Shown here: in pieces, positions 33,545 to 64,000 of the stretch | How the letters are laid out: every line of letters starts with the position of its first letter | Position numbering within the stretch: position 1 is the first letter of the stretch | Origin: a virus | Length of the DNA: 64,000 nucleotides | IMG/VR virus record: IMGVR_UViG_3300032087_002150 | Location: 64,001-128,000 of that record | Direction: 5' to 3' (one strand) | The notes under the pieces: model-generated | What the model was told of the DNA's origin: nothing | The model's input: only the letters and a program-made list of their open reading frames with translations | The model's database searches: none | Made by a program: the position numbers and the translations under genes

Positions 33545-34885
33545 TTAGGCAGAAACCATCAGGTTGTCTACACGGAAGATGCGGTAGTATTGGTTGGTCT
33601 TAGCAGAAGCGAGACCATCAGCAGGTGAGTTACCTACGAATGGGTTAGACGCCATGCCATAACGAGTCTTAAACCCGATACGTGGCTGGAAGTCGTTCTC
33701 GCCGACAGCGCGAACCATCTGGAGTGGTACATATGGGCAGTAGAATACACCTGCGTCATATGGGTTAGTGCCCTTGTAACCAACAGTTACATAGTCAGCA
33801 ACCGCATATGGGTCGATGTAGATGCGCATACGACCGTTCAGAACACCAGCAAAAGTGTTACCAGTGTCGTCAACTTCCAGAGAAGTGCTCAGAGCAGGAG
33901 CGTAGTCAAGCATACCAGAAGCAGCGAGAGCAGTAGCAACATCAGAAGATACGATTGCTACGTTACCCTTACCACGACGAGTTTCTTTAGCGATAGTGTT
34001 CGCTTCACGATCCAGTTGAACCAGCAGACCCTTGAACTTCTCAACAGACCAACGACCATCAGCGTCCGTAGACAGGTCGAAGATACCGTTGGTAGCAGTG
34101 TTAGCAGTCAGTGCACCAGTCTTCGCTTGGCTGTTGATAGTACGGATAACTTCGCGGTTGATTTCAGCAAGGATTTCTACTGAAAGGATGTTAGCGAGTT
34201 CCGCTTCAGCGTCAAGACCGTGGATTGCTTTCAGGTCTTGAGCGAGTTCGATGGTGTACTCTGCCTTCAGCGCACGTGACTTAGCAGTTACAGTCGCCTT
34301 CTCGATGGTGAAACCCATCTCGTTGAAGTCAGAAACACCGCCAGTGCCGAGTGCTTCAGCGTCAGCAGTTGGCATACCGCCACCAATGCTTGGACCAGAG
34401 CGGTCGTCATTGATAGTGCTGTCGCCGTTTGAGTCAGTTACACCGTCAAGACCAGAAGGACCAGCAGTGTGAGTCGTAGAAGAGTCACCAGAGTATGGTA
34501 CAACTGCTTCGTTGAACAATGCTTCTTGATCTACAGTAGTGCCAGAAGCTGCTGACTTGTAGCGAGACTTCATAGCGAAGATCAGACCAGTAGGACCAGA
34601 CATTGGTTGAACACCACATACGTCGTATGCCATCAGGTTAGGCATAGCGCGACGAACGAGCGAGATCAATACTGGGTTCCAGTTGTCAGCACTTGAAGTA
34701 TTGTTAGCAGCAGCAGCTTCGTTCAAGAAAGATGACTGAGCACCTTCAGCGCGCATTGCTGCTTCTTGGTTTTCAAGAATAGCAGCAGTTACTTTGCGAC
34801 GATAAGCATCTTTGATGTCGCCTGCTGATTCTTCGTTAAGTACTGGTGCCCACTTCTGCACCAGTGATTCGTAGTTCAAATCCAT
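33545..34885 (-). CDS. 23: Major capsid protein (gp23)
   Basis: LISLVRRAMPNLMAYDVCGVQPMSGPTGLIFAM, SRALKAEYTIELAQDLKAIHGLDAE, FQPRIGFKTRYG. Confidence 0.99.
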   Translation of the reverse strand: MDLNYESLVQKWAPVLNEESAGDIKDAYRRKVTAAILENQEAAMRAEGAQSSFLNEAAAANNTSSADNWNPVLISLVRRAMPNLMAYDVCGVQPMSGPTGLIFAMKSRYKSAASGTTVDQEALFNEAVVPYSGDSSTTHTAGPSGLDGVTDSNGDSTINDDRSGPSIGGGMPTADAEALGTGGVSDFNEMGFTIEKATVTAKSRALKAEYTIELAQDLKAIHGLDAEAELANILSVEILAEINREVIRTINSQAKTGALTANTATNGIFDLSTDADGRWSVEKFKGLLVQLDREANTIAKETRRGKGNVAIVSSDVATALAASGMLDYAPALSTSLEVDDTGNTFAGVLNGRMRIYIDPYAVADYVTVGYKGTNPYDAGVFYCPYVPLQMVRAVGENDFQPRIGFKTRYGMASNPFVGNSPADGLASAKTNQYYRIFRVDNLMVSA

Positions 34886-34913
34886 TTTTATTTCTCCTTA
34901 TGGGTAATATGGA

Positions 34914-35945: not shown

Positions 35946-35958
35946 TGTGTTCTCCTTA

Positions 35959-36630: not shown

Positions 36631-36827
36631 GTTAGTTCCTTGATCGCAGTTTCTATTGATTTTTGTGCGTCCCTTTGACTACGGAACGTATCTAACATAT
36701 CTCCGTCAATATAGGCAACGAAACCTTTGGCAGTCTTTTGTATCTCAGTTTTAATTCTGCGATACTTCTTCGTCCAGACTACTTCGCCCTTCGGTTTGCG
36801 TTGCCTTAATTCGGAGAACGTAATCAT
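36627..36827 (-). CDS. Small head-region protein
   Basis: ORF between the gp67-like gene and gp21, behind late promoter TATAAATA at 36834-36841. Confidence 0.6.
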   Translation of the reverse strand: MITFSELRQRKPKGEVVWTKKYRRIKTEIQKTAKGFVAYIDGDMLDTFRSQRDAQKSIETAIKELT

Positions 36828-36836
36828 AAGATTTAT

Positions 36837-39568: not shown

Positions 39569-41353
39569 TTAGAATTGAATGCCAGAGTTAACGATCTCTT
39601 CAAAGTTCGCACCAGTTCTAGTAGCAACAAAGTTCAACGTGATGAAGTTGATGCTTCTAGATGGCTTGATGAAGAGTGTCGCAACGAACTCGTTACGATC
39701 GATAACTTCTGGGGTGTTGTTACGCTCGTCACACTGTACGAAGAAGTCCTGAATACCACGACGTGCTTGAATCTCTCGCAGGAGAGGTTCTACAATCGCT
39801 ACGAACTCGGCGCGAGTAAACTCGTCGTTGAATTCGAACAGGAAGTTACGTGCAGCAACAGAGATCGCTTTCTCGAGAGCAAGGAACAAGCGTCGAACAT
39901 TGATGCGATCAAACGCAGATGGTCGAGCAAGTTTAGTCTTGTCGCCGAACAGGATAATACCACGTCCTGGGAACTGAACAATTGGGTTTACACCCTTTTT
40001 GTACAGTTCGTCACGCTCTGCTTTACTTGGTGAATAAGCGAGGTTGGTCACACCAACATACTCACCGCGTCGCTCACCAGCAGGTGACCACCATGGACCA
40101 TAGTTTGTGTCCGCAGCAGCCATAATACCAGCAGTGGTAGAAGCAGCAGGAATGTAGATGTAGTTGTCGTTGTACTTGTCGTATACACGCAAGAAGTTGT
40201 TATCAACGATCAAGTAAGAAGACGCTGTAAACTGATTAGTAGTTTCCAGAGTGTCATTTACTGGATCAATGTTGTTAACAACGTCATCGCGAGCAGGCGA
40301 CGCAATAGCAACACAATCTTTTCGGGTTACGCCAGCAATTGCGGCGAGGTCATTAACGAGAGTGACTTGATCAGTCGTCGACGACATACTTGGAGCAATC
40401 AACAATGAAACGTCAATTTGCTCTACGTCTTCGAACTCATCGAATCCGTTTTGGATATCACCGACATCCAAAGCAGCGCCATCACGTCCACCAGAAAGAG
40501 CAGTGTTAGCAGAGTCTTCAGACCAAGATACGTTAGTGGCGTAGTTGGTAGTTCCTGAAGTAGCAGGAGCAGTGCCCCAAGTGGCAGTAGCAATGGTGTT
40601 TACTGAGTCGACATCACCGGACCAAATATAATTTGAACCGTTGTTCAGCACAGTTTTGAAGAAGTTGTCAGAACCGTCTACAGTCTTGGCGCCAGAAGCG
40701 ACAGACAGGAATGGGAATGTCTCGAGGACAGTTCCTTTAGTTCCTGAGATAAGACCGTCTGAGTCAACTACTACAAGGTGAATTTCGTCATGTAACACAG
40801 TTCCTGGTCGGTCAAGTGCCCATTGAGAAGTTCCTGGGATAGCATCAAACTTATCTGAATAATCCCATGCTGCCCAGTTAGTGGCAGTCTGAGCAGATGA
40901 GTCAGTTTCGCCTGATTCAATAGCGAAAATAGAAACTGCGAGAGAGTTACCGAGCTCTCCTGGATACTTTGCGACAAACATGTCGAGTCCAGATTGTTGC
41001 TCGAAGTGATCTTCATTCTTGACTTGGTGCTTAGTAGCAGTCAAAGAAGAGTTAAGTGCGCTGTCACCGATAGCGACGCTACCAGATGGAATCGCACGAC
41101 AGACTTGCAGGTTCCCAGAATAACGCAGGTACTGAGCACAGGAGAAATAATCTACTGCGTGATCAGCATCTGGCGTACCAAACTCTCTTGCGAGTTCATC
41201 TTCATTAGAGACGATAGTTGGTACTTCAACGGGACCCCACTTAAATGCTCCGACATATCCAGCAAGCGAAGTATCAACATTTGGGACCACAGGGGTCAAG
41301 TCGAATTCGCGAACTACGATAGCAGGAGACAGAGATGGAGCTGTAAGTGCCAT
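39569..41353 (-). CDS. 18: Tail sheath protein (gp18)
   Basis: SP.IVVREFDLT, WGPVE, PWWSPAG..RG, FDRINVRRLF, FEFNDEFTR, IKPSRSINFITLNFVA. Confidence 0.98.
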   Translation of the reverse strand: MALTAPSLSPAIVVREFDLTPVVPNVDTSLAGYVGAFKWGPVEVPTIVSNEDELAREFGTPDADHAVDYFSCAQYLRYSGNLQVCRAIPSGSVAIGDSALNSSLTATKHQVKNEDHFEQQSGLDMFVAKYPGELGNSLAVSIFAIESGETDSSAQTATNWAAWDYSDKFDAIPGTSQWALDRPGTVLHDEIHLVVVDSDGLISGTKGTVLETFPFLSVASGAKTVDGSDNFFKTVLNNGSNYIWSGDVDSVNTIATATWGTAPATSGTTNYATNVSWSEDSANTALSGGRDGAALDVGDIQNGFDEFEDVEQIDVSLLIAPSMSSTTDQVTLVNDLAAIAGVTRKDCVAIASPARDDVVNNIDPVNDTLETTNQFTASSYLIVDNNFLRVYDKYNDNYIYIPAASTTAGIMAAADTNYGPWWSPAGERRGEYVGVTNLAYSPSKAERDELYKKGVNPIVQFPGRGIILFGDKTKLARPSAFDRINVRRLFLALEKAISVAARNFLFEFNDEFTRAEFVAIVEPLLREIQARRGIQDFFVQCDERNNTPEVIDRNEFVATLFIKPSRSINFITLNFVATRTGANFEEIVNSGIQF

Positions 41354-43073: not shown

Positions 43074-43401
43074 GTTGAGGAGTAATATCCTTTTCGTTCA
43101 CTTGTTTCAGCGCACGCTGAAGATCGGTAGTTGAACCGATAAAAACATTCGTCGTTTCTTGTTTAGGTAGTGCCTTGACATCTTCCTTTTCTATATCCTT
43201 CTTTTGCTTGTGAAGGTTCATCAACTGTTGAGAAACATCAGAGGTGTCTTTTATAAGTTTGGCAAGAACTTCATATGCTCTGGGGTGTTCGCTGCTCTTA
43301 GCGACTTCAATCATTTCTTCTACACCGTCGCGACCCTTGCCGATTAAATCGTACAGAGTTTCTCTGGCGAACTGGTAGTCATTATCTTTATCTGATTCCA
43401 T
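43036..43401 (-). CDS. 16: Terminase small subunit (gp16)
   Basis: DY..AR..LY.LI, A..SEHPRAYEV, VFIGST.DLQ. Confidence 0.93.
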   Translation of the reverse strand: MESDKDNDYQFARETLYDLIGKGRDGVEEMIEVAKSSEHPRAYEVLAKLIKDTSDVSQQLMNLHKQKKDIEKEDVKALPKQETTNVFIGSTTDLQRALKQVNEKDITPQHDALADSGHDQV

Positions 43402-44213
43402 TATGGATTATTAAAATAGTCATGAGGCACATAGGTATCACTATCTAGTATTGACGGCGATACGGTATAATCAGAGTCCAATGAAACTGGACGAGGATTC
43501 GTTTCAACTCTTACAGTCTCCAAATACCTATCAGAGTCAGCAGAGTTAATATCCATATTGTACATATCCATGTCGATACGAGTAATAATCTTGCCTTCGT
43601 CTGGTTTTGGACCATAGAAGTTTACTTTCATATCAAAGGTCAAGGTATAGATTATCGTACGACGATCTTCCATCGCTCCTTCAAAGTTATCAGTAAATGC
43701 TACCGACTGTAATATTACAGGAACGTCTTCTTTGATATCCGGATAATCTTCAATCGGTTTAAAACTTACTGTGTATTGTGGAGCAAAGTAAGGCAATATT
43801 TGTTCTACTACTTGTAGGGCATCGTTGTGCTGTTTAGCATAAACATTAAGTTCAAACGTAATAATGTATGGAGTTGCAGTGTAGAACTTACTCGCTTTCT
43901 GACTGTCTTCAATACCAGTTCTAGTAAAATAATTGGTCTTAGGAAGTTGTCGTTGAGCATCATACGCAATTGATAGAACTTCAAAGGACATACGAGGCAG
44001 TTTGATTGCTAACTGTCTTTCATTATCCTCGCCCTGATTCATTTCATTGATACGTTCTAAGAACTTACGAGCAGGCGCATACGCCAGAGGAACTTTTTGC
44101 TGGGCATAAACATTATTACCATCACGGCGAATCATGTATAGGTTGTTGAACATCGCACCAAATACTGCGACGCACTTCCTAACTCGCTCGTGATAAAAAT
44201 GACCGCCAAACAT
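43401..44213 (-). CDS. 15: Tail sheath stabiliser / terminator (gp15)
   Basis: FG.MFNN, VPLAYAP..KFL, LPRMSFE, QVVEQILPYF.P. Confidence 0.93.
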   Translation of the reverse strand: MFGGHFYHERVRKCVAVFGAMFNNLYMIRRDGNNVYAQQKVPLAYAPARKFLERINEMNQGEDNERQLAIKLPRMSFEVLSIAYDAQRQLPKTNYFTRTGIEDSQKASKFYTATPYIITFELNVYAKQHNDALQVVEQILPYFAPQYTVSFKPIEDYPDIKEDVPVILQSVAFTDNFEGAMEDRRTIIYTLTFDMKVNFYGPKPDEGKIITRIDMDMYNMDINSADSDRYLETVRVETNPRPVSLDSDYTVSPSILDSDTYVPHDYFNNP

Positions 44214-45157
44214 TAACTAAAATCCCCAAATGGATTATCTTCGCTGAAGTCTACGAACTCTAATACAGAAACATCAAAGTCAGTGACGTTAGAAGTCCAA
44301 GTACTGCTCGCTCCTATTGGATTTATATCTCCACCAGCAGCGCCAGATTGAATCTGTTGTAGTTCAGCAACAGCAATAGGAGTAGCGATAGAAGTCGCAA
44401 CTCCGACGCTATCAACAGAGAAAACTTGCCTTGTGGTAGTAAAGGACTTGTACTCACCAGAGGTGTTACCAACGTTGGCAAGTCTCATAATATTATCGGA
44501 ATCAGACCAGTGTACAACTTCACCAGTAACAACATAATCGTCGAATGCTTGAGTAACTCTATCCCCTCTAGTGAATCCATTAGAGGCAGAGTCCATAGTA
44601 AGTTGCCACTGATATGCGGCGAACTCTTCAATGTCGTCGATGCCCTGATATGTACCAGTACTGAACCGTTCTCCACTGTACTCGAACAACTCAAGTCTCA
44701 TTCTGAATACAGGAAGTTGCCCTAACTGATAGAAAGGATTCTCATCTTCTACCTTCATAATCTCAAAGGTAGAACCAGATAATGGAATGTGTATCAGGTC
44801 GCCTTCGCGAGGACGATAGTAGACATCATCTTTTTTCTCAACATACTGACGAATCTCGCTGTTAAATCTACGGCGAGCCATAATAACTGTGGCAGCATCA
44901 CGGATCTCTACACCAAACTTTTGAAAGAGGTCGCCCTCTCCATCGTATCCTTCTACGTTTTCAACATAGACTTCTACTTTGAATGCATATCGAAACTCTG
45001 AAAGAATCTCATCATTAAAGACCATATCTCTGGACACAACTTCTCGGGGCAGATAATAAACATCTTGCCCATAGAACTTGAGAGATTCAACGATTAGATT
45101 TTCGTAGAGAGCTTGTTCAGATTTTACGTTGTGGCGAAAGTGTACTGAAGTTGCCAT
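44213..45157 (-). CDS. 14: Neck protein (gp14)
   Basis: ES...YGQDVYYLPRE, KFG.EIRD, RPREGDLI, PFYQLG, ELFEYS, DFSEDNPFG. Confidence 0.93.
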   Translation of the reverse strand: MATSVHFRHNVKSEQALYENLIVESLKFYGQDVYYLPREVVSRDMVFNDEILSEFRYAFKVEVYVENVEGYDGEGDLFQKFGVEIRDAATVIMARRRFNSEIRQYVEKKDDVYYRPREGDLIHIPLSGSTFEIMKVEDENPFYQLGQLPVFRMRLELFEYSGERFSTGTYQGIDDIEEFAAYQWQLTMDSASNGFTRGDRVTQAFDDYVVTGEVVHWSDSDNIMRLANVGNTSGEYKSFTTTRQVFSVDSVGVATSIATPIAVAELQQIQSGAAGGDINPIGASSTWTSNVTDFDVSVLEFVDFSEDNPFGDFS

Positions 45158-45921: not shown

Positions 45922-46695
45922 TTATGCTCCGTTCAGCAATGTACCAGCAGAGTCGTAAATTCCGATACCATTAAAACCATCAACTTGATCTGCGTTGAGG
46001 TTTGTTACTTTAGTTGTTGATGCAACAGTAAAAGGTGCTGTTCCTGTTGTGTTACTGAAGTTAACAGTTGCACCAGCAGCAGCAGTAAGTGTAGTTCCGT
46101 TATCGAACGTCAGCGTACCAGTAGTGTAGTTATCGGTAGCACCGCTGCTAAGGAACAATGGGGCATTTGAATCAATTTGACCTTGAACCTTTGCCGAATC
46201 GTACGACTCAACAGTAGCAAAGGAAAGTACACCAGATCCATTCGTAGTTATAAACTGATTAATTGCGCCATCAGAAACAGGATAAGTCAATCCGTTTAAT
46301 ACCGCACCACCAGATGCTGTTAAAGTATTAGTAAAAGTTTTAGCACCAGAAACAGATTGCGTACCAGTTAGTGTAACAGCAGCAGAATCAATCTGACCTA
46401 GAACTTTCGCGGAATCATATGATTCTACAGTTGCAAAAGAAAGTGTGCCTGAACCGTTTGTGGTTATAAACTGATTGATAGCACCATCAACAGTAGGATA
46501 GGTCAGACCATTTAAGACAGCACCGTTGGATGCAGTCAAAGTATTAGAGAACGTCTTAGCACCGCTAATCGTTTGACTAGTGCCGAGAGTTACATAATTG
46601 TTTGTAACATCTGAATTTAATGCCTGAAAGTTGGAGTCTAACTCTGTGAAGGTTAGTGCAGATCCTTTTACGTTTCTTAGAGTGAGTTCGGCCAT
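45922..46695 (-). CDS. Fibre-like virion protein with an internal tandem duplication of about 72 aa
   Basis: LR..KGS.LT..ELD.NF N-terminus; two copies of Q..SGAKTF...LNGLTYP..DGAINQFITTNGSG.LSFATVESYDSAKV.GQIDS; V.NLNAD.VDG. Confidence 0.75.
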   Translation of the reverse strand: MAELTLRNVKGSALTFTELDSNFQALNSDVTNNYVTLGTSQTISGAKTFSNTLTASNGAVLNGLTYPTVDGAINQFITTNGSGTLSFATVESYDSAKVLGQIDSAAVTLTGTQSVSGAKTFTNTLTASGGAVLNGLTYPVSDGAINQFITTNGSGVLSFATVESYDSAKVQGQIDSNAPLFLSSGATDNYTTGTLTFDNGTTLTAAAGATVNFSNTTGTAPFTVASTTKVTNLNADQVDGFNGIGIYDSAGTLLNGA

Positions 46696-50700: not shown

Positions 50701-51457
50701 TAGGTGATGTTACAAACCCTTGATTACCTGATCCAGAAACAGAAGATGATTCCGCTGTTACTGTAATGCCACCTTGATCATCGATGATTCTTTCAGCAAC
50801 GCCAGCAACTACATTGTTAGCAGTAGGTTGTAACGTGCCTTGAGCAGTACGAGAAGCACGTGCTTCTCCAGATACATTATTATTAGTGATAGGTTGAAGT
50901 GCCGCTGATCCAACTTGTGTTATTTCGCGTTCGGCGGCACCATCTACTGCTACATTTTGAGCAGATACAGCACCTGATGCATTTCTAGTTGCTGTAGCGG
51001 AACCAGAAACAGTAGAATTTTGTGCTTGCGGGGAACCACTACCATTACTTGTGATTACAGTGGTTCCAGAAACAGAAGATTCTTGAGCAGCAGGAGTAGC
51101 ATCAGTATCTACTACACTACGTTCGGCAATACCTGCGACGTCTGATGCGTCAGATACAACGAGGGCAGCGACCTCAGAGACAACTTCACGTTCACCATTA
51201 CCAGTTACGGAAGAAACACCAATCTCATCAGCAGTTAAATCTGCTTCGATTGTTGTTACAGTTCTCTTGGTAGTACCTGAGACGGAAGAATCTTGTGATT
51301 GGGCAGCGCCAGATCCAGTAATCTTGCGCTCGGCAACTCCAGAGACTGTTGCGTCTTGCGCTGTTAGTTCAACGACGAGTCTATGCTCGCCGCCAACATA
51401 TCCAGAATCATGATACGTATCGTCTACGTATGGGATAAACTGTGCTGATGATGCCAA
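47768..51457 (-). CDS. Giant acidic repeat protein (about 45 units of 24-30 aa, G-V-A-E-R core), probable virion fibre or filament
   Basis: Repeated S.V.G(V/T/N)(A/S/G)ER.(I/V) units over about 1150 aa; late promoter CTAAATA at 51496-51502. Confidence 0.75.
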   Translation of the reverse strand: MASSAQFIPYVDDTYHDSGYVGGEHRLVVELTAQDATVSGVAERKITGSGAAQSQDSSVSGTTKRTVTTIEADLTADEIGVSSVTGNGEREVVSEVAALVVSDASDVAGIAERSVVDTDATPAAQESSVSGTTVITSNGSGSPQAQNSTVSGSATATRNASGAVSAQNVAVDGAAEREITQVGSAALQPITNNNVSGEARASRTAQGTLQPTANNVVAGVAERIIDDQGGITVTAESSSVSGSGNQGFVTSPTISAQDVTVSGVAERTIVSESAAIQAQSSTVASAAERVITGSGAPQPTSNNLVFGVAERVIELEVHGQVDGDVNADPSSASGVAERIIADVDATPASQDVTVSGVSERTIVGSGTPTAQSSVVAGVSEREITGSGSLHDDESVITDVAGDGERSIVTVVSAAEVDTPSQVTVTANIGRVTSAALQPSENNVVAGVAERTIVAGAIALKPTENNITNITATKGPSVLSSSLQTSGSGTGGFAERSIVDVDTVLAADSSTIETGVAERTIVGVDTDLTAAEVGVAATTGNAERNVVTQVSALAIDDPSAVVGAAERIIVDVSTALAAQSSSIETGVAERTIVDVDTALTAQSSTVGGVSERTVRDPIPPQVASQDAIVSGVAEREIRSGATLSAQNVTVVGTAEREITVVDGALTASEIGSSGVAGVAEREIETNNVVQALAVDSSSVAGTAERTINDVDATPAAQSSVVVGTSERTVISVEADLTADEIGVSVVAGNGEREIITEQSALIVDDPSDVSGVAEREIRSAVTLTTDAPVVTAVTEITSNSTGAIQAQDAVVSGVAERTVVSVETDLTAAEVGASGVAGVAEREIEDDGVTHALRPTLNNVVAGVAEREIRSAVSLTTQDAAVNGSGIRTINDIDATSSAQSSTVSGVSERTIVIVDGDLSASEVGASGVAGVAEREIDDNLATHALRPTVNNVVAGVAERVITATGSLQPSDSQVEVVPEIVANSSGTPKAQEATVSGVAERTVVIVDGDLTAAEVGVSSVTGNGEREVVTEYAALVVADASDVTGVAERAVVDTDATPAAQSSTVAGVSERTVVGSGAAVVQDVTVVGVAERVVVIVDGALTAAEVGASGVAGVGDREVDDQGGLSVEAGSSSASGVAERIVVVATGVPDSNGVAGLDAQPSVVNAVTKRTVFSIEADLTADEVGVSSVEGVAQRTELTEAIPLVKAFRIYKPALSTITIRRPLGQIEV

Positions 51458-54364: not shown

Positions 54365-55147
54365 TTATGGTTTGCCTTCAAAATGATCCCCAACCTGAAT
54401 CGCTGTTATTTCAGATAGATTTCTAGTAGCAGTATATGATTTATGATATAAAACTGTATTTTCTGGCATAGGCACTTCCCTATGCAACAAAGACCAATAG
54501 TTCCAACGATAGTTGTCTTCAAAAACACCAATCTTCAAGTCTTTATACTTCTCAACTTTTTCTGTTAACCACCAAAGAGTAAACTGATCCCAATGCCTTA
54601 AATGGTATGGGTAAGTTTCTTTATCATAGTTCCCCTCTTCATCGGTCGGCCACCAATGACCTGCTCTTTGCTGCACATAAATGTCATACCATTCTTGCAT
54701 AAATTCCATGACTAGAGGGTTGCTGCTATCATACAAACAAACGCCACCGCAAAGAGTAAACTTACCGCCAGGAAAATCTATGTCTCTAAAGATATGATAA
54801 CACTCTTCTCTTAAGTCAGTGAATACCATATCATTATCGCCGAGTTCATCAAACACCAAGGCGATGTCTTCATGCAAACATTCCATATCTGCGTCAATAT
54901 AGAAAGTTTTATCGAATGGACTTTGAGCCATGCCCCAAAGTTTCGCTCTGTAGTTGTCGTCGCAGAAAATTATATGATCAGCAATCTTTTCCCGACCATC
55001 ACAAAACCGTTCTTCGGTTACAAAGCAGACTTTTGCCTCGGGGTGATAGTCCTTTATCTGCTCTATAAGATTTAATGCCCAAGCATAGTAGACATCTTCT
55101 TTAGAGGCAACAATCAAGTATCCGTTATTTTGACTCTGCTGCTTCAT
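54365..55147 (-). CDS. GT-A nucleotide-diphospho-sugar transferase (GT8-like)
   Basis: GYLIVAS, RAKLW...SPFDKTFYIDAD (DxD), WDQFTLW, RWN, YH. Confidence 0.75.
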   Translation of the reverse strand: MKQQSQNNGYLIVASKEDVYYAWALNLIEQIKDYHPEAKVCFVTEERFCDGREKIADHIIFCDDNYRAKLWGMAQSPFDKTFYIDADMECLHEDIALVFDELGDNDMVFTDLREECYHIFRDIDFPGGKFTLCGGVCLYDSSNPLVMEFMQEWYDIYVQQRAGHWWPTDEEGNYDKETYPYHLRHWDQFTLWWLTEKVEKYKDLKIGVFEDNYRWNYWSLLHREVPMPENTVLYHKSYTATRNLSEITAIQVGDHFEGKP

Positions 55148-55627: not shown

Positions 55628-57580
55628 TTAAGTTGCTGACACCCTTGTATATAGTGTATATGTTTCCACATCTACTGGCACTGCCACCAGAGTTTCGCCA
55701 GCATATTGATTACCAAACTGTCTCGTATAGTATCTAGTGTATTGTCCAGTGTACTGCCCTGCATAATAACCAGTGTATGTTGCTGATCTTGTTCCGGTGA
55801 AGTTGATACTAGAAGGACCCAAGTACTGATCAGCATAGTTTCGGTTGCCAGTATAGTTTGCTGCGAAGTTTCTGACTCCTAAGAAGTTAACAGGTGCACT
55901 TGTATATTGTCCTGCATAGTTTCTTGAACCAGCAAACTGCCTAGTGCCAGCAAACTGTCTAGTTCCTGGGAAGTTTGCTGCTCTAGTTCCTAAGAAAGCA
56001 CGAACCCCAGAATATGCAATATAGTTAGTGGATGCGAAATAATTATTTCCTAGGAAGTTAGCAGGTGTTGCTCTGACTCCAGAATAAGTTGGGAATCCAG
56101 TAAAAGTTGCAGGAGCAGGTCCCAAGAAATTCGTAACAGGTCCAGAGAAGTTTTCAGATACCGCAACAAAGTTATTCGTTGGTCCTGGTCTCACCCCTGA
56201 AAAGAAATTCGGAAAACCTGCTTCAAAAGGTGCGGTGTTGCCTAATCTTTGACCAGTGTAAAATGCTGGTCCAACAAAGGTGCCAGGAGTAGGCGCACCA
56301 AAGGTTGTATAACTGCGTATTCCAGAATAAGAGCGAGTTCCTGCGAAGTTTGCTTGCCTAACACCCACATAGGATGATGCAATATTAGCAGTGAAGGTTC
56401 CTGGAGCAGGTCTAGTTCCTAGGAAGTTTCTAGAACCAAGGTAAGAGGATGTTCCGAAAGCAGTAAAGGTCATTGGAACATAATCTGTTGCTGGTCTCAC
56501 GCCCAAGAAGTTAGTCAAGGCAGAAGTAAACTGTGTTGTGGCGCTTGTGTATTGCCCAGCATAGTTCCTTGACCCCGCAAACTGACGAGTTCCCGCAAAG
56601 TTTACAGGATTTGCTCTAACGCCAGCAAAGGATTCAGATTTAGTTCGTGATCCACTAAAAAGAACTTGCCTTACACCGAGGAAAGTTGCGGGAGGATTTT
56701 CATACCTTAATCTTGTGTATTGCCCAGTGTACTGTCCACTGTACTGAGTAGCGAACTGTCCAGTATACTGAGTTCCAGCATATTGCAGAATCTGTGTGGT
56801 GTTCTTTGTATCAACAGCAGTTCCTCTTGCTTCCCAAGTTCCGGAAGCAGTTGGAGCACCTTGCGCTGAAGAGCGCAGTTCGTATTCACCAACTCCGTTC
56901 GTATAGTACCCATAACGAATCATACCGTTACCGATTTCACCAACTTCTGATGCCGACAACTCCTGAAAATCAAAATCGTTTATTCGTTTAATTGGATAAT
57001 ATACTTCTGAGTCAACATTGATTGTGAATTTGCGCCAAATATGATAATCAGTTGTCCCGTCAGTTTTAGTATCACTGAAGCAAGTATCAATCCATTTTTC
57101 GTATTCTGCTGATGGTTGAGTAGAGGACAACCTGAAAGTTCCAACTCTTTCTTCAGAATGGACAATTTCGTTTACTCTGAGAGCAAGAAGTTCATAACTC
57201 GCAGAATCCATAGGGTGTAATCCACCGTCTGAATCTACAACAATCATGTTCTCAACTACGCCATCAAATGGCACCTCATAAACTGAGTCCAACATCTGAT
57301 ACAATGTTGTAGTGGTAGTTGATGGTGCGGAAATGGACGTTCCTGGGTGCGTTCCGATTGGATCAGTGTAGAACGTATCGGTAAAAGTACCAATAGCAGA
57401 ATCTTCAGCAGTATTCGTTAAGGTAATAGCACCGGAATATCGTTTACCTACTGAATCGAATGCACCGACAAGTGCAAGACCACCTTCGTTGGCGAAGAGT
57501 TCTTCTTCCAACAAGGTCATTTGTTTAAGATCGCCGCTTGAGTTTAGGATCTTTATCGGTATGCTATTCCAAGCAGACAT
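55628..57580 (-). CDS. Virion fibre-like protein with [FY]xGxR repeats (paralog B)
   Basis: Shares DSAIG..TDTFY....GTHPG, YELRSSAQGAPT..GTWEARGTAVDT and ETYTLY.RV with 52175-54310. Confidence 0.7.
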   Translation of the reverse strand: MSAWNSIPIKILNSSGDLKQMTLLEEELFANEGGLALVGAFDSVGKRYSGAITLTNTAEDSAIGTFTDTFYTDPIGTHPGTSISAPSTTTTTLYQMLDSVYEVPFDGVVENMIVVDSDGGLHPMDSASYELLALRVNEIVHSEERVGTFRLSSTQPSAEYEKWIDTCFSDTKTDGTTDYHIWRKFTINVDSEVYYPIKRINDFDFQELSASEVGEIGNGMIRYGYYTNGVGEYELRSSAQGAPTASGTWEARGTAVDTKNTTQILQYAGTQYTGQFATQYSGQYTGQYTRLRYENPPATFLGVRQVLFSGSRTKSESFAGVRANPVNFAGTRQFAGSRNYAGQYTSATTQFTSALTNFLGVRPATDYVPMTFTAFGTSSYLGSRNFLGTRPAPGTFTANIASSYVGVRQANFAGTRSYSGIRSYTTFGAPTPGTFVGPAFYTGQRLGNTAPFEAGFPNFFSGVRPGPTNNFVAVSENFSGPVTNFLGPAPATFTGFPTYSGVRATPANFLGNNYFASTNYIAYSGVRAFLGTRAANFPGTRQFAGTRQFAGSRNYAGQYTSAPVNFLGVRNFAANYTGNRNYADQYLGPSSINFTGTRSATYTGYYAGQYTGQYTRYYTRQFGNQYAGETLVAVPVDVETYTLYTRVSAT

Positions 57581-57597: not shown

Positions 57598-58752
57598 TTA
57601 AGCGTTCAACAATGTGCCATTGCGATCATAAACGTTCGGGACTCTGGCGTTGACTTCGGCAAGTGCTCCGTGGACAGTTTTAGCAGTTGTATGCGGAGTG
57701 GCATCACCAGAGGCAGGCATTTCTATTGCTCGAGAGAAAACGATATCTGCGCTGTCAGTTCTCCACACTTCCTGTGAAGCAGAATAAAGTCCAGTGTAGA
57801 AAATTATGTCGCCGGAATTATTAACAATACTGGCAAACTCAGAACCTTCTACAGAATCAGTTTGAAAGTGAATATGCCCATTACCAGAAGCAAGGCGCAC
57901 ATCCGAGTCAGCATCAAGAGTAACACCACCAACAGCGGTAGTAATCATGAGAGTGCGAGCAACTTCCATTCGAGTTTCTGCTGGCGCGAGGTTCCAACTG
58001 ATAACCTGATCGCTGTCTCTATAGAAGTAAATATTACCGTCATAGGTGTCTAGTGTCATATCGCCTGTAACATCAATATGGTATCCACCAGTTACTTCTA
58101 GTTTATTATCTGGACCAAAGGTGTACTCGTATCTTGTATTGCTACCTCGCATGAAGGTAATACCAGAAGCAGAATCTGCTACTTGCAGAGTCAACTGACC
58201 ATCAGTTGAAATGGTGTAGTCGCCAGTTACAGAATCTATGTTACTGGTTCCCATCGTACGATTGAATCGAGTGACGCCGCCATCTTTATGGACGATGACC
58301 CCACCATCAGCATCTAAGGTAATGTTATTTTGAACATCGAATGAAAGATCGCCTGTTACTGTGTGCGTTTCATCGCCAACAGTGATTACGGCGAGAGCGG
58401 AGTCAGTGGTAATCTTACCTGCGTTAGCATCAAATACTGCTTCGATTTCATTAATGGCGTCAACAATCACCTTCGCTTCGGTGTCCAAGTCAGCACCACT
58501 ACCGCCACCAGCACCGTGCAAGTCGCTGTCAAGTTCGTTGAGAGCGTCTACAAGGGTGTTCGCGGTAAAGTCGGTCAAACCCCTTACCTTACCCAAATTG
58601 CCTGATGTTTCTGGTCCAATAGCGGAATCCAGATACTTCATATCTGAGTCAACAATATCACCGAAATGATTAAGGTCAGTGATTAGTTGTTGAAAGGTAT
58701 CCGTCGTCTGAAATAGAGGATGGTCGCTGTCATGAAACATGTTATTCGACAT
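57598..58752 (-). CDS. Fibre/whisker-like virion protein
   Basis: T..LV.A.NE repeats, ITLDADGG beta repeats, C-terminal YD..GTLLN. Confidence 0.65.
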   Translation of the reverse strand: MSNNMFHDSDHPLFQTTDTFQQLITDLNHFGDIVDSDMKYLDSAIGPETSGNLGKVRGLTDFTANTLVDALNELDSDLHGAGGGSGADLDTEAKVIVDAINEIEAVFDANAGKITTDSALAVITVGDETHTVTGDLSFDVQNNITLDADGGVIVHKDGGVTRFNRTMGTSNIDSVTGDYTISTDGQLTLQVADSASGITFMRGSNTRYEYTFGPDNKLEVTGGYHIDVTGDMTLDTYDGNIYFYRDSDQVISWNLAPAETRMEVARTLMITTAVGGVTLDADSDVRLASGNGHIHFQTDSVEGSEFASIVNNSGDIIFYTGLYSASQEVWRTDSADIVFSRAIEMPASGDATPHTTAKTVHGALAEVNARVPNVYDRNGTLLNA

Positions 58753-58753
58753 T

Positions 58754-58984
58754 TTAGTGCTTCTCTATCATTGTTTTTATTAGGTCTTTAAGTTCCGAGA
58801 ACTCTTTTTTTAAATCAGCGATATCTTCTTGCATCGCTTTTTCTTTTTCCCTTTTGGCGATTACACGTTTTTTCATTTCGCGTGCACGCTGTATTTCTTC
58901 CTTGTTTGTATTTAGTATTGCGCCAGTAGAGAGGTCTTTAACTAGACTAGAATGACCCTCAACATGCCTAAGTTCTTTTTTCAT
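58754..58984 (-). CDS. Small coiled-coil protein conserved downstream of the large virion protein
   Basis: VEGH..LVKD..TGAILNTN...LK.E.SELK.L. Confidence 0.75.
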   Translation of the reverse strand: MKKELRHVEGHSSLVKDLSTGAILNTNKEEIQRAREMKKRVIAKREKEKAMQEDIADLKKEFSELKDLIKTMIEKH

Positions 58985-61900
58985 CAGATCAAAGCAATCG
59001 CTTTAATGTCTCGAATGATCGGAACTTGACAACTATTCCTGGTTCTCAACACTATTTTTATTTGGAACTGACGGAAGTCAGGAAGGTTGCCATCAATCCC
59101 GCCTAGAAGATACCTATACTCGCTATATGTAATCTCTCCAGGACCCTGAACATACAGGTTCTTAGGAGGATCATTATCTGGGACGACTCGCTCCCAGTCT
59201 ACAGTATAGATATCCTGATCATCGCCAGTAGTTGTTCGATAATATAAATCGAAATCTGCTTCTGGCGGTACGTGCAACTTAGCAATAATTCGCAAACCAT
59301 TTCCTGCCTCAGGGAGGATAATTGGTTTTGTAATATGCTTGGATGGAGTAGTACCAGACAACGGATGAGTTTCAGGCAGGAAGTCTTGTGGAGCATTCCT
59401 TACGGTATCAGCACCATCAGAATCCCATGCTTGGTTGTCAACGATGTAGTTAAGCATGTTTGCTCCGACACCTTGAATATCAATCATCGGAGTCAAATCA
59501 GAAACGTAACCAGACGCTTTCACAGATTGCGCTCTAGGACCGCCAAAGTTGGAAACCTGAGATGTTTGTAACTTAGTGGTAACAACGATTGAAGGTTCTC
59601 CATTCAACGCTGTTGGACTCAAAGTTTGATCACTATTAGCGAGGTAACGAGGTGTGTCAAAGTATATTGTCTCAAATGGAGTCAATGTAAACATTCCATT
59701 ACCATTTGTTCCTGGGGTTGACGTATCGTCGATATCAAATCTGGTGTCTTGGGTTGGTGTAGAAAGTCCAACCTTACCATGCGAGAATCCGCTAACGAAA
59801 CTTGCTTGATACTGAATACTGGTTCCTGTGAATTCTACATCAGAAACATTCCAAGTAAACCTGTCGATATTACAAGCGGAAAGACTGCTTACTGAATCTG
59901 CGCCAAACTTACCAGTCGAAGTAAAGGTTGATCCGTCATTAATGGCAACATAATAACCATTAACATCAGGATCCACAACCACGTTGGCACTGTCCATAAT
60001 TGAACCGCCAGTAACACCGTTGTAATCAGTTCCTGATCCTAATCCTCGGATAATAACCTTATCGCCGTCTAGCAAGTTGTGGTACTTGTGCTCAACACGG
60101 AAACGAGTTAGGTCGTCCGAATCAACAGATAAACTTGTTGCATAATTGTGGTTAACTCTAAAATCTGGTTGATTGTAGAAATTAACAAATCCTTGCTTCT
60201 TGAACTTCGCAGTATAGATACGGAATGCCAAATCTTGATTCTGTTTTGGAGTCCAAGTAGAACCGTTCTGAGACAAGAAGAGAGAACCAGTTGCAGGTTG
60301 CTTAGAAACACGCTTATCAGTTCTACCGATTACCAGATCATATGTTGTTGCTACAAATGCCTCGTATCCATCACAGTCTGACAATAGAACCAGAGCGTAT
60401 TCTTTACCCGCCTGAATATAAATTGGTTCTTCAAACTCAAAAGTTACTGGGTTCGCTAGAATATTATCCAGAGTAGTTTCGTCAGGATCGGTCACATTAG
60501 GAATCGCAGCAACCACATCACGCACTTCTTTAGCGGTCTTATAAACACAGTGCTGCTCGCTTATAGGCGCACGGTTCGGAGTTCCGTTTGTCACATCTCT
60601 TATCTGTAACTGTAGTTGAACTTGAGGTTCACTAGCAGCAGGTGCTCTCCGCATAAACACATCAATCTTGGTGATGAATGCTCCGCTAGTCATGGATGAA
60701 GCGACTAGCGAGAAAGTCTGCGCCAATGGATCATATGGAACCCAAACAACTTCGCTTTCTGTCGAGATCGTTTCGCTTTCTAACGTCTCTGCCACTCGAT
60801 CAATATAATCCTCAGTTCTAACAACGCGAGTGCTTACAATATCTCTCCTTCTGGTGATTGCACGACCAGCAGCGCGATATCTTGTTTTCGCTCTAGAAAG
60901 TGCGTCGCTACTTACGCCAGAAGAAACGTCCAAAAGTTTTACTTCGCGCGAACCAACTCTAAACTTCCATCCGGCATAGTCATAAACAGCAGGATCTCCT
61001 GCGCCGAAACGAGCAACACCTTCTTTAACTTTCTTCAACCAAGTTTCAAGTTCTTCTTCGTAAGGGAACACTTCAGATTCAGGAACAGGGATGACTGCTG
61101 TATTCGGGATGAACAAATCAAAATACAGATTACCGAATTGGTCTGAAATAAGAACGTTTTCGTTTGAAACATTGAGAGAATTAGGATGCTTCTTCATCCA
61201 AGTAGCAACAGGCGCATATTGTTTATTTTGTGCACCTGCGTCCAGCAATGTGGTGTAAGAACCTTCGTCCCGACTCAATACCCACTGATCCATCCTAACT
61301 CCGTCGAAGTACAACCAGAAACGTGTATCTGGGCGCAGACCTTCTGCTTTACCGAGCACTCGTCGAGCTCGGATAAATGGAACAGTACTTACATCTATGA
61401 TCTTATCTTCGTCGAAAGTTTCAATTTGATCGCTTACTACGCGAGTGCGAACACGCTCAGTAATTCTTTGAGTAACTCGGCGAGTGGTTGTCGTTCTTTC
61501 GATTTCTCGCTCGACACGACCTGCCTCATTAATTCTACGTCCACCCAAATCTCTAGTTGTGGTTCTTGTAGAAACAAAGGTAGCAGTCCAAGTTCTAGGA
61601 ACATATGCAGATAGATCATTCAACTTAATGTAAATGGTTTCGTTGGTAATATTTCTATCAGGCAAGCGATGATTGTCTACCCAGAAATCAGCGGAAGGTC
61701 TTAGTTTCAGATTACCTTCACCAGCAAATACGTTAAATGGGTTGACATTATAGTACCCACGTTCTTCGTATGAGTATGGGGTCATCCATGAAATTACTTC
61801 TTGACTTAGAGCGGAATCAAGAACTTCTTGATAGTCCAGCATCAACATATCGCCCTTTCGGACAATGTTGCTCAAAGAAGGAATAGTAGTTGTGCCTCTT

Positions 61901-64000
61901 GCTCCGGATACCGAGTCGCCTGAATCGTAGATAAAGTCGTTCCAGAACTTAGTATGCTTCGGTTGAATCTCGCCCTTTAACGTATCAAGAGTCTGCGTGA
62001 TCCAACTTTCGTCATCAATAAAGTTCGGTCCAACTTCTGCTGAAGCGAGGGCAAGTCCATAACTGAAATCGTCAACGAAGAAACCAGTCTTAGAGCGAAT
62101 ATTCCCTTCGCCATCCTGCTCGATAAGATTTTGCGCTTCTTGTTCGATAAACGAAAGGGCAACAGTTTCTTCCAATCGCCCGACTCGGTTTCTTAGACGA
62201 TCGATGTCTCGCATAGTGTAGCGAGGATATCGGTTAGTGGAAACCATCAAATCCCTGACAGATTTAGTATTGCCGTTCAACAAAATATTGAAGAGGCGCA
62301 TTGTACTTTCATCTGGTTGAGGAATTCCTGGTACGAGTTCCTCATCTCCTCTCTTAGTATAGAGAACAGGTCTAAATGTGGTTTTGTCGTATGTTAAGTT
62401 GATCCCATCTATTCTCTTATTATAGTATTCTACACCAAAACTAATTGTATCACCATCTCTAGGAATTTCATTGTAGTCTGCAGAGTTTATGGTATCTTCT
62501 AATGGGTTAAGTTTTGGACGCAGGTCGAAATACTGATGTAGAGGATATGGTTCGCCATCCAACTTGGAGACAAACGTAGGAATATCACCGTAGTCAAACT
62601 CAGGGAACTGACTTGTTGCAGATGCTGAGTCAGTAAACAAGTATGAGTTTGGTGAGAAGTATCCGTCATTTCTAGTCCAAGTAAAGTATCCAATCTTCGC
62701 AAGGACTGAGTCGGTAAGATCACTGACTCCTCTGTTTGGGGTCAATGAAACAGGACCGTAGAAGTTATCTCGTTGTCCACCGTCAAATACGACGTTGTTA
62801 GTGATCACTGATCCATCAGAGTCAGAATCATATGCGTGGAGCAATCTCACACCGTCATACAATCCAGACATCGCAGTTCCATCTGCTTTACTGGTAATCA
62901 GGAAACGATCACCAACAGAATCATTGTATCTTCGCAGTTTAAACCAACCTTCTGTGTACTTCTTCGTGTCTGGAGTAAGACCACCAGACTTCAATCCTTT
63001 TTGTACATAATAGTATACTTTGTAGTTGTGACCGTTTACAGGATTTGGGGGAGTAATAGTTGCTGTTCCTGACGATATAGTAATGTCACCCGCGCCGATG
63101 ATAGGCGCACTATCTGTGTCAGTGTTGATGAAAACCCATTGTCCATCATCAACGAAATCTTCATCTGATCCACAAGTGAGTGATAGAGTTCCTGATGAAA
63201 CCGAAACATCATCAAACCTTTGAACTGTCATTTTTACATCACTGACACTCTTAACGCGGTGGTTTGAAATTTCAAATAGAGAATTATTAACTTCCGGTCC
63301 AATTATAAATGCTTGTTGATCTTCTAATTGAAACTGTAATGTGTCAGTAGCAGATGCAGCACCAACTTCGCGCATAGTCTCAACATCGCGGAAGTTTTTT
63401 CCTGCCTGCATTTGAATATCCATCAAATGAACTCGATATTGAGTATCAATACCTTTTACATTATTGCCTGTTTTACCGTTGTCTACAGTTGTCCAGTCCA
63501 TATTAACAACGGACTTAACTCGCGCATGACCGATACAGACACCACTTTCGTTTAGCAGTTGTTGTTTCTTCAGTAAGTTAAGGTTAGAAGGATTCCAGTC
63601 TCCTAAGAAACTATTAGTGCCTGAATCATTGCCCTTGACGCCGAGATAGTTCTTGAAGAAAACGCCTGTGCTTGTGCCTGAATCTGAAGTAGTTGAGACT
63701 GGTTTTTCAACATAAAGAACATTGTCGAGTTCTTGTTCTAAACGAAATCCGTCTACATAGGCAAGGGGATTCAATCCTTGATCATTGACTCCGGACAAGT
63801 GATATCGCATTCTCGTAGCATCACCGTTGGAGTCATCCCATTCGTCAACTTCCAAAGCAAATTTGTTGACGATAAAGTCTCCGAGTGCTTCGTTTTGGCG
63901 AGTCGCCATTCTTCTTTCAATTTGATTAAAACTATCCGTGCCCTGTTTAATCTGTACAATCTTAGATTCTCGAACCTTAGCAAATTCAATGAAGTCCAAT
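58984..64000 (-). CDS. Large virion structural/baseplate protein (DUF4815 / VrlC-like), 5' end outside the window
   Basis: E..GDF.V..F, RYTMRDI..L..R...LE, KTGFFVDDF, NVNPFNVF, DPLAQTF, GSLFLSQNGSTWT..Q..DL.F, F..FQIKIV...P.IRD.KAIAL. Confidence 0.85.
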   Translation of the reverse strand, partial: LDFIEFAKVRESKIVQIKQGTDSFNQIERRMATRQNEALGDFIVNKFALEVDEWDDSNGDATRMRYHLSGVNDQGLNPLAYVDGFRLEQELDNVLYVEKPVSTTSDSGTSTGVFFKNYLGVKGNDSGTNSFLGDWNPSNLNLLKKQQLLNESGVCIGHARVKSVVNMDWTTVDNGKTGNNVKGIDTQYRVHLMDIQMQAGKNFRDVETMREVGAASATDTLQFQLEDQQAFIIGPEVNNSLFEISNHRVKSVSDVKMTVQRFDDVSVSSGTLSLTCGSDEDFVDDGQWVFINTDTDSAPIIGAGDITISSGTATITPPNPVNGHNYKVYYYVQKGLKSGGLTPDTKKYTEGWFKLRRYNDSVGDRFLITSKADGTAMSGLYDGVRLLHAYDSDSDGSVITNNVVFDGGQRDNFYGPVSLTPNRGVSDLTDSVLAKIGYFTWTRNDGYFSPNSYLFTDSASATSQFPEFDYGDIPTFVSKLDGEPYPLHQYFDLRPKLNPLEDTINSADYNEIPRDGDTISFGVEYYNKRIDGINLTYDKTTFRPVLYTKRGDEELVPGIPQPDESTMRLFNILLNGNTKSVRDLMVSTNRYPRYTMRDIDRLRNRVGRLEETVALSFIEQEAQNLIEQDGEGNIRSKTGFFVDDFSYGLALASAEVGPNFIDDESWITQTLDTLKGEIQPKHTKFWNDFIYDSGDSVSGARGTTTIPSLSNIVRKGDMLMLDYQEVLDSALSQEVISWMTPYSYEERGYYNVNPFNVFAGEGNLKLRPSADFWVDNHRLPDRNITNETIYIKLNDLSAYVPRTWTATFVSTRTTTRDLGGRRINEAGRVEREIERTTTTRRVTQRITERVRTRVVSDQIETFDEDKIIDVSTVPFIRARRVLGKAEGLRPDTRFWLYFDGVRMDQWVLSRDEGSYTTLLDAGAQNKQYAPVATWMKKHPNSLNVSNENVLISDQFGNLYFDLFIPNTAVIPVPESEVFPYEEELETWLKKVKEGVARFGAGDPAVYDYAGWKFRVGSREVKLLDVSSGVSSDALSRAKTRYRAAGRAITRRRDIVSTRVVRTEDYIDRVAETLESETISTESEVVWVPYDPLAQTFSLVASSMTSGAFITKIDVFMRRAPAASEPQVQLQLQIRDVTNGTPNRAPISEQHCVYKTAKEVRDVVAAIPNVTDPDETTLDNILANPVTFEFEEPIYIQAGKEYALVLLSDCDGYEAFVATTYDLVIGRTDKRVSKQPATGSLFLSQNGSTWTPKQNQDLAFRIYTAKFKKQGFVNFYNQPDFRVNHNYATSLSVDSDDLTRFRVEHKYHNLLDGDKVIIRGLGSGTDYNGVTGGSIMDSANVVVDPDVNGYYVAINDGSTFTSTGKFGADSVSSLSACNIDRFTWNVSDVEFTGTSIQYQASFVSGFSHGKVGLSTPTQDTRFDIDDTSTPGTNGNGMFTLTPFETIYFDTPRYLANSDQTLSPTALNGEPSIVVTTKLQTSQVSNFGGPRAQSVKASGYVSDLTPMIDIQGVGANMLNYIVDNQAWDSDGADTVRNAPQDFLPETHPLSGTTPSKHITKPIILPEAGNGLRIIAKLHVPPEADFDLYYRTTTGDDQDIYTVDWERVVPDNDPPKNLYVQGPGEITYSEYRYLLGGIDGNLPDFRQFQIKIVLRTRNSCQVPIIRDIKAIALI

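Follow-up and report, generated by a model that had tools for sequence, protein, structure and literature searches.

The locus considered here raises the question of why the dipeptide Asp-Ser (D-S, or DS) is so frequent in the outer virion proteins of a T4-like phage. The DNA that was analysed (the window) is a stretch of 64,000 nucleotides, positions 64001-128000 of the 151,660-bp T4-like phage record IMGVR_UViG_3300032087_002150, which is ~84% complete; coordinates are window positions unless they are marked as genome positions or with a locus identifier (L or G numbers). An earlier reading of the sequence (the original prediction) regarded DS as a virion-wide tag that is modified by the enzymes of the phage. 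The Asp-Ser excess is almost wholly an excess of the tripeptide D-S-[A/D] (hereafter DS[AD]), and this tripeptide marks the neck, collar, outer baseplate, fibres and a giant virion protein, not the whole virion. On the best explanation, selection maintains D-S-[A/D] as a short linear tag on those tail, neck and fibre proteins that face outwards, within a single large clade of uncultured marine T4-like phages. There is about an even chance, judging from the sequences, that the tag serves as the acceptor for phage-encoded O-glycosylation of serine at the tail periphery.

In nine outer tail, neck and fibre proteins, a set that was chosen post hoc after inspection of the data, DS[AD] occurs 45 times against an expectation of 4.3 (10.4x, Poisson p ~6e-30). 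The corresponding figures are 7 vs 7.9 in the other structural proteins and 10 vs 17.6 in the non-structural proteins. Within the same nine proteins DT[AD] stands at 0.36x of expectation, ES[AD] at 0.41x, NS[AD] at 1.0x and SD[AD] at 1.15x. The control tripeptides, including DG[AD] and DA[AD], range from 0.36x to 1.4x, and DS followed by residues of other classes ranges from 0.65x to 1.9x. Nearly all genes of the window are carried on the minus strand, and its tagged and untagged structural and host-recognition proteins are as follows.

57598..58752, minus strand: p384, a probable short trimeric fibre and the most heavily tagged protein of the window, with 11 DS, 9 of which are D-S-[A/D]
58984..64000, minus strand, continuing beyond the window to 64812: giant VrlC-like virion protein, 1942 amino acids (aa) in full
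55628..57580, minus strand: fibre A, paralogue of fibre B, with tags confined to the N-terminal 190 residues
52175..54310, minus strand: fibre B, paralogue of fibre A, with three DS sites that align with those of fibre A
45922..46695, minus strand: p257, collar or whisker-like, beside the neck genes, with a weak BppL_N match
43401..44213, minus strand: gp15, tail sheath stabiliser (PF16724, E=7e-65), with three DSD in a C-terminal extension (residues 226, 246 and 257)
44213..45157, minus strand: gp14-like neck protein (PF11649), marginally tagged
39569..41353, minus strand: 594-aa protein, putative sheath gp18 (a label taken over from the original prediction), marginally tagged
33545..34885, minus strand: major capsid protein gp23, which matches annotated major capsid proteins, untagged
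47768..51457, minus strand: 1229-aa Ser-rich protein of the host-recognition cluster, untagged, with 6 DS vs 8.6 expected

Taken singly, p384 has 9 DS[AD] vs 0.61 expected (p=2e-8), the giant protein 9 vs 1.76 (p=9e-5), p257 4 vs 0.21 (p=7e-5), gp15 3 vs 0.15 (p=5e-4), fibre A 3 vs 0.21 (p=0.0014) and fibre B 3 vs 0.22 (p=0.0015). The evidence is marginal for gp14 (2 vs 0.28) and gp18 (3 vs 0.68), each with p=0.03. No DS[AD] is present in gp23 (0.46 expected), the gp19 tube, the 1229-aa protein (1.74 expected) or any of the inner baseplate proteins. With major capsid protein, tube and inner baseplate lacking the tripeptide and the sheath being marginal, the description of DS as a virion-wide tag had to be given up.

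All of the hand counts of the plain dipeptide in the original prediction were exact on recount. There are 11 DS among the 28 Ser of p384, 6 in p257, 6 in fibre A and 4 in fibre B (all N-terminal), 17 in the part of the giant protein that lies in the window (18 in the full 1942 aa), 4 in gp15 (three in the C-terminal extension), 3 in gp14, 5 in gp18, 3 in gp23, 3 in gp43 and none in gp19. The residue after DS, tallied over 79 occurrences, is D in 24, A in 21, V in 11 and G in 4. Significance was assessed by within-protein shuffles (30,000 per protein), and after this correction for composition the proposed enrichment of DS in outer virion proteins stands for p384 (11 vs 3.1 expected, p=1.3e-4), p257 (6 vs 1.3, p=8e-4), fibre A (6 vs 1.7, p=0.0045) and gp15 (4 vs 1.1, p=0.016), while it falls for gp18 (5 vs 3.7, p=0.31), gp14 (3 vs 2.1, p=0.35) and gp23 (3 vs 2.3, p=0.41), in which DS is at chance. 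Fibre B has 4 vs 1.7 (p=0.08), and the giant protein (18 vs 12.3, p=0.06) and gp20 (p=0.05) are borderline. These counts are partly non-independent, as four of the six DS in p257 lie inside an internal tandem duplication of ~72 residues (~65% identical, with the same two DS sites in each copy) and three of the four in fibre B align with fibre A. Family searches, which also named gp15 and the gp14-like neck protein in the window, placed gp8, gp9/10-like, gp7-like wedge, gp6, gp25 and gp5-like proteins just past its end; among these, DS is in excess in gp8 (13 vs 3.6) and the gp9/10-like protein (8 vs 1.8; p=3e-5 each) and in the gp7-like protein (9 vs 2.9, p=9e-4). For the structural block of the window as a whole the count is 79 vs 52.4 (1.51x), and for the non-structural genes of the window it is 39 vs 46.5 (0.84x). 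A DNA-level motif (GANTC inside GAY-TCN) was considered as the source and rejected, as Ser codons are chosen no differently behind Asp than at other places (30% AGY for Ser that follows Asp, 27% for Ser overall). Ordinary Ser codon use after Asp places the signal at the level of protein rather than DNA.

The tripeptide was then scored in 101 loci fetched around homologues of gp8. The trait is bimodal, with 66 loci tag-rich (at least 3x), 33 tag-less (<2x) and 2 in between. In tag-rich lineages the peripheral proteins have 892 DS[AD] vs 145.7 expected (6.1x), and the inner baseplate proteins have 10 vs 60.2 (0.17x), which is below all controls. In tag-less lineages the peripheral proteins have 50 vs 72.9 and the inner baseplate proteins 21 vs 25.2, both ~0.7-0.8x. 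The nearest deposited relative of the phage is Phage C48C1 (OQ984149), with the cyanophages, Melnitz and T4 farther off, and the tag-less relatives include T4 (3 vs 6.0), S-SSM5 (5 vs 6.5) and Melnitz (7 vs 5.0). A tree of gp8 has tag-less lineages at its base and a single large derived clade that is tag-rich. Threonine does not substitute for serine in these proteins, DT[AD] being at 0.49x in 239 peripheral proteins and 0.22x in gp8 homologues; among 120 gp8 homologues (35-90% identical) the dipeptide DS is at 2.3x and DT at 0.56x. DS[VILM] is at 1.9x in this phage but at 0.51x across the clade. Drift in guanine-plus-cytosine (GC) content or amino-acid composition was rejected as a cause (GC vs DS excess, rho=0.14, p=0.14).

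In an alignment of 121 gp8 homologues, DS[AD] is spread over 53 columns. The columns in which it is sporadic hold by themselves 167 occurrences against a total expectation of 70 (2.4x), and the eleven control tripeptides give ratios of 0.2-0.94. An argument that the motif must be structural because its rate of gain is not raised was tried and is valid for the plain dipeptide only; the tripeptide analysis overturned it. A specific tripeptide that is gained repeatedly and avoided in inner proteins is what recognition by a trans-acting factor should produce, and the conclusion that D-S-[A/D] behaves as such a tag is supported. Correlation of DS excess between proteins (Spearman) was also seen, but it mostly reflects shared ancestry. 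Loci L120 and L088 were considered as independent losses of the tag and rejected as such, since by the tripeptide they are still tagged (4.8x and 1.9x) and carry the glycosyltransferase cassette described below. As a separate observation on the L120 subclade, the gp9/10-like gene between the gp7-like gene and gp8 is missing from its syntenic place there (L120:8672-11485) and present in the sister L122 (L122:7802-11530); no homologue of this gene was found in any deposited phage.

Among individual proteins, p384 contains both conserved sites and sites that its lineage gained on its own. Four N-terminal DS (VDSD, YLDSAIG, NELDSDLHG and TDSAL) are near-invariant among 32 homologues, and six C-terminal DS are found only in the query and its two nearest relatives, other homologues having DG, GG or xG at these places. 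An AlphaFold2 (AF2) model of p384 places the C-terminal DS sites at beta-hairpin turns, and the best fold matches, which are non-significant, are phage fibres. The p384 family (alignment A2) has further features: RIPNVYDRxGTLLNP is nearly invariant at the C-terminus, AINEL/AINEI helix motifs recur at the N-terminus, and the middle part consists of GDITLDADGNxI beta-helix-like repeats whose number varies among homologues. Relatives of the giant protein in tag-rich lineages have 17-21 DS vs 11-14 expected. A late-promoter motif, TATAAATA, lies 33 nt upstream of the fibre B start.

The distribution of the tag follows that of a 209-aa gene without annotation, which lies outside the window at genome 2300-2929 and was found in every tag-rich genome testable. 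It is present in this genome, G001, G002, G003, G012, C48C1, G004 and a contig of L120, and it is absent from the complete genomes of T4, S-SSM5 and Melnitz and also from G010, in which the syntenic region is covered. The gene closes a conserved, translationally coupled operon in which the stop of one gene overlaps the start of the next and the order is a GT25 glycosyltransferase gene (genome 3570-4334), a PF03407-like glycosyltransferase gene (2926-3573) and the 209-aa gene. Upstream of this cassette lies a variable glycan cluster (L002:4948-12235) encoding a phosphoribosyltransferase-like protein, a methyltransferase, a second GT25, a sulfotransferase, an NAD-epimerase, a GT8-like protein, two proteins of no recognised family and a NodU-type carbamoyltransferase. 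The cluster genes are tightly packed on one strand, and the set varies between genomes as O-antigen clusters do. The phage thus encodes at genome 2300-12235 two GT25, a PF03407-like and a GT8-like glycosyltransferase, in addition to a glycosyltransferase-like gene located between the fibres. Of the 80 loci around homologues of the 209-aa gene, 63 have GT25 and 57 the PF03407-like glycosyltransferase, and the genes upstream vary. GT25 tracks the tag in every informative T4-like genome, but as an essential writer it was rejected because tagged C48C1 lacks it. That phage does have the 209-aa gene and carries tags in two peripheral proteins only (15 vs 3.2 and 5 vs 0.82), with none elsewhere in the region; being tagged without GT25, it makes the 209-aa gene the better correlate of the tag.

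An independent case is provided by DSL-LC06 (OR003941.1), an unrelated 30-kb siphovirus-like phage from a freshwater lake. P0375, a distant homologue of the 209-aa protein, matches two deposited phages, C48C1 and DSL-LC06, and the homologue in the latter is annotated as a sialyltransferase. Enrichment of the tripeptide in DSL-LC06 was predicted before it was counted. DS[AD] occurs 16 times vs 5.3 expected (p=1.4e-4), all 16 in the virion half of the genome and eight of them as DSAG; for the major tail protein the count is 3 vs 0.20, and the controls DT[AD], NS[AD] and SD[AD] occur just 2-4 times each. About a quarter of this genome (L290, 1732-9017) is devoted to sugar enzymes, namely two methyltransferases, a heptosyltransferase-like protein, two glycosyltransferases, a KpsC-like protein that resembles transferases of 3-deoxy-D-manno-oct-2-ulosonic acid (Kdo), and the mini sialyltransferase-like protein. 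The co-occurrence of the tag with a phage glycosyltransferase cassette that the original prediction had proposed to look for is therefore found, and an unrelated phage shows it as well. Direct observation covers this co-distribution of tag and enzyme gene, the motif statistics, the turnover of sites and the avoidance of inner proteins.

Two smaller genes lie next to the fibres.

54365..55147, minus strand: probable GT-A glycosyltransferase of 260 aa between the two fibres, apparently within the late operon
51499-52182, overlapping the fibre B stop: 227-aa gene, putatively cupin-like, with no Pfam or PHROG match

Searches of Pfam and PHROG gave no match for the 260-aa protein either, and its neighbours in a protein atlas carry PF03407 (30-51% of members) and GT8. 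This fibre-adjacent gene had been suspected of being the writer of the tag, with which its distribution does not agree: it is present in tagged C48C1 and G001, in lineages with little dipeptide excess and beside the fibres of L120, where enrichment is reduced, and it is absent from tag-rich G002. The GT8-like gene of the glycan cluster was likewise rejected as the determinant, since G002 lacks it and the G001 copy is interrupted by stop codons. That copy (G001:C1:71096-71880, in the record behind L022) has two TGA and one TAA and may be a pseudogene or an assembly error. Homologues of the 227-aa gene occur in just 4 of 80 related loci.

The 209-aa protein is a candidate miniature member of the GT42/Maf class, an assignment that draws on distant sequence relationships. 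Full-length distant relatives were found by a profile search of 1.8 billion proteins, and the consensus of 42 of them contains GNGPS, GCN, SGHxA and WGxDS. The profile of these relatives is homologous to that of the phage family (99.9% hhalign probability). Searched against solved structures, the profile of the relatives has Campylobacter CstII/CstI sialyltransferases in its eight top places (E=0.006-0.05, profile positions 4-139, with the motifs aligned), and no solved structures other than CstII/CstI were matched. PF01973 (MptE/Maf-like) matches 2 of the 42 distant relatives (best E=1e-4) and, at ~0.1, 2 of 39 members of the close family, and the protein atlas points weakly to the same family. 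A search of this genome with PF01973 gave no match at E up to 1, and a search for the GxGPS motif was also negative. A weak six-frame match to PF01973 in tag-rich G003 (E=0.006) falls in an open reading frame that is the orthologue of the 209-aa protein (46% identical).

If the tag is a glycosylation site, a phage enzyme would modify its serine in the host cytoplasm before assembly. The 209-aa sialyltransferase/Maf-like protein would start the O-glycosylation, and further glycosyltransferases together with the sulfo-, carbamoyl- and methyl-transferases of the variable upstream set would extend and decorate the glycan. A fuller version, to be taken as possible rather than probable, is that of a previously undescribed cytoplasmic phage O-glycosylation system in which a stripped-down GT42/Maf enzyme of ~200 aa would prime Ser, perhaps with a Kdo- or sialic-acid-like sugar from the pool of cytidine monophosphate (CMP)-sugars of the host, the PF03407-like glycosyltransferase and GT25 would extend it, and the variable transferases would diversify it, resulting in a strain-specific tail coat in the clade and in at least one unrelated siphovirus-like phage. 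Host CMP-Kdo might serve as the donor. The original suggestion that DS is modified by enzymes of the phage thus gains from the tag behaviour and the co-occurrence with the cassette, and in its revised form it concerns the tail periphery only and involves another enzyme.

Several points weigh against glycosylation of the tag. Modification of the serine, the sugar nature of the modification and the role of the cassette as writer are all inferred, from sequence alone. DT[AD] is depleted, and most O-glycosyltransferases accept Thr. Many of the sites are conserved in position and lie at turns or helix starts, where tag-less relatives have xP or xG. When phylogenetically independent pairs are compared, dipeptide concordance between gp8 and the giant protein is 4:0:6 (p=0.125), and for the gp7-like protein there is none. 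Co-distribution of tag and enzyme gene is confounded by shared ancestry, as it comes down in essence to a single deep origin, C48C1 and an unrelated phage. The cassette and glycan cluster lack the T4-type TATAAATA late promoter, which structural genes have. Neither the 209-aa protein nor the profile of its close family has a significant match in Pfam or the PDB, the E-values behind the enzyme assignment are marginal, and the family of this phage reads GNGDxA in place of GNGPS, followed by CN, CGH and YGFDS. Among the ~70 proteins annotated, no NeuA/NeuB-type or CMP-sugar synthesis genes were found.

Some of these observations would fit a purely structural motif, in which DS[AD] is a helix start or tight turn in the beta-rich blocks of the fibres and outer baseplate that was fixed ancestrally and has a bare serine. 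Such an explanation is somewhat unlikely. Several positions are indeed conserved, including gp8 column 504 (D in 119 and S in 112 of 121 sequences) and the four near-invariant sites of p384, and in AF2 models of gp8 and p384 DS falls in loops, at the N-terminal ends of helices or at turns of beta-hairpins. In tag-less relatives the corresponding columns are filled by turn or cap residues: AP, TP, NP, SP, DE or DN, with DG or GG in the case of p384. DSDG fits type-I turn preferences. Sporadic occurrences of plain DS are not raised, and concordance between proteins fades after phylogenetic pairing. A structural role leaves unexplained, however, why N, E and T are excluded (NS[AD] 1.0x, ES[AD] 0.41x, DT[AD] 0.36x) and why the inner baseplate avoids the tripeptide sixfold in tag-rich lineages only. 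Proteins with unrelated folds acquired this one tripeptide within the same lineages, and it continues to appear in new columns (2.4 vs at most 0.94 for controls). Homologues in T4 and cyanophages manage without the motif, which recurs in unrelated DSL-LC06 together with a homologue of the enzyme.

A trans-acting factor could also be something other than a glycosyltransferase. It is improbable that Ser or the adjacent Asp carries another modification, made by a radical S-adenosylmethionine (radical-SAM)/SPASM enzyme, a kinase or a hydroxylase, with the glycosyltransferase cassette acting elsewhere, for example on host lipopolysaccharide (LPS). A 383-aa protein with radical-SAM and SPASM domains (Pfam) is encoded upstream of the window at genome 45084-46235 (L128:5084-6235). 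The radical-SAM/SPASM class includes protein and peptide maturases, and the 383-aa protein could, from its domains, be one of them. Among 50,697 deposited phage records its sole homologue is in C48C1, 3 kb from the 209-aa gene, and in IMG/VR it has 178 relatives. The putative cupin-like gene that abuts fibre B points the same way, as does the published view of pelagimyophage glycosyltransferases, in which they alter the host O-chain (PMC7029224). Against this, DSL-LC06 is tagged and has glycosyltransferases but no annotated radical-SAM gene, and no kinase was found. Quite improbable as well is that the sites bind a cation (Ca2+ or Mg2+) or water and so make the exposed parts of the tail more stable in sea water. 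In favour are the marine setting of the clade, the strict requirement for Asp and, in tagged proteins, the sequences DSDG, DSDGSGN and DSDGLGN, which resemble calcium loops of the DxDxDG type. About half of the sites are DSA, though, and offer no second ligand, freshwater DSL-LC06 uses DSAG, marine cyanophages and Melnitz do without the motif, and avoidance in inner proteins is left unexplained. The probability that the pattern arose artefactually from composition, repeats, paralogy or a DNA-level motif is close to nil. The p257 duplication and fibre paralogy inflate some counts and the set of "hot" proteins was picked after looking; within-protein shuffles, normal Ser codons, control tripeptides and replication in hundreds of homologues and 66 loci speak against an artefact.

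A glycosylation tag of this kind can be compared with several known systems, and literature searches found no paper describing a D-S-[A/D] motif. Maf enzymes attach O-linked sugars to serines of flagellin while it is still in the cytoplasm, ahead of its export, so that, as is proposed for the phage, a cytoplasmic enzyme adds sugar to exposed Ser of a protein that later forms an extracellular filament (PMC4065374, PMC11339370). The distant relatives of the 209-aa family share with Maf/GT42 proteins the motif order of N-terminal GNGPS, CN and then SG..A...G.D. The phage protein differs in being only ~200 aa long and lacking acceptor-binding domains, and the sequence matches are marginal; moreover, the flagellin systems glycosylate Thr as well and follow no strict sequon, unlike the phage motif, which is strictly D-S-[A/D].

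The sequon of Bacteroidota, D-(S/T)-(A/I/L/V/M/T), resembles the tag in having three residues with Asp first and a hydroxy-amino acid second, and DSA fits it. It differs in that Thr is excluded from the phage tag (DT[AD] 0.36x, 0.22x and 0.49x in the data sets above) and in that Asp is the commonest third residue in the phage (24/79), V, I, L and M being unfavoured clade-wide so that only Ala fits. The Bacteroidota system is periplasmic and host-encoded, while the phage uses Shine-Dalgarno sites; Shine-Dalgarno-like 4-mers precede 43% of its genes vs a background of 15%, which argues against a Bacteroidota host. The view that a host Bacteroidota system is not responsible is supported by the exclusion of Thr, the prevalence of Asp at the position after Ser and these ribosome-binding sites.

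Glycosylation of mycobacteriophage virions by phage-encoded glycosyltransferases was reportedly described by Freeman et al. in 2023. The acceptors there are said to be Ser/Thr-rich C-terminal tails of capsid and tail-tube proteins, with the modification shown by mass spectrometry. The likeness lies in a phage with glycosyltransferases of its own that would decorate its own virion proteins in the cytoplasm, which is here proposed from sequence. The differences are that the candidate acceptor here is a defined tripeptide scattered over tail-periphery proteins, with the capsid untouched, and that it is known from sequence alone.

The gene layout of the window also resembles a described arrangement. 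Pelagimyophages and cyanomyophages have a host recognition cluster, a variable island from VrlC to gp14 in which fibres are mixed with glycosyltransferases (PMC7029224). In the window, the region between the giant VrlC-like gene (58984-64812) and gp14 (44213-45157) contains p384, fibre A, the glycosyltransferase-like gene, fibre B, the cupin-like gene, the 1229-aa protein and p257, and is thus likewise made up of fibres and a glycosyltransferase-like gene. It differs from the published account in that the latter assigns the glycosyltransferases to modification of the host O-chain and mentions no motif in virion proteins (PMC7029224), and the conserved cassette linked to the tag lies outside the cluster. 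Elsewhere in the genome there are two separate genes for D12-class N6-adenine DNA methyltransferases (L128:1395-2243 and L128:13590-14456).

Even if the serine is unmodified, the pattern needs explaining, since enrichment is sixfold on the outside, depletion is sixfold on the inside and both occur only in lineages with the enzyme gene. If D-S-[A/D] is a glycosylation site, a strict three-residue sequon and an enzyme of 200 residues would make an attractive minimal tool for site-specific protein glycosylation. The many "LPS-type" glycosyltransferase genes of genomes like those of pelagimyophages and cyanomyophages would then be reassigned from modification of the host surface to decoration of the virion. 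One of the most abundant groups of marine myoviruses would coat its host-recognition apparatus with variable glycans of its own making, with consequences for host range, for resistance to proteases and grazers and for the stickiness of the particles.

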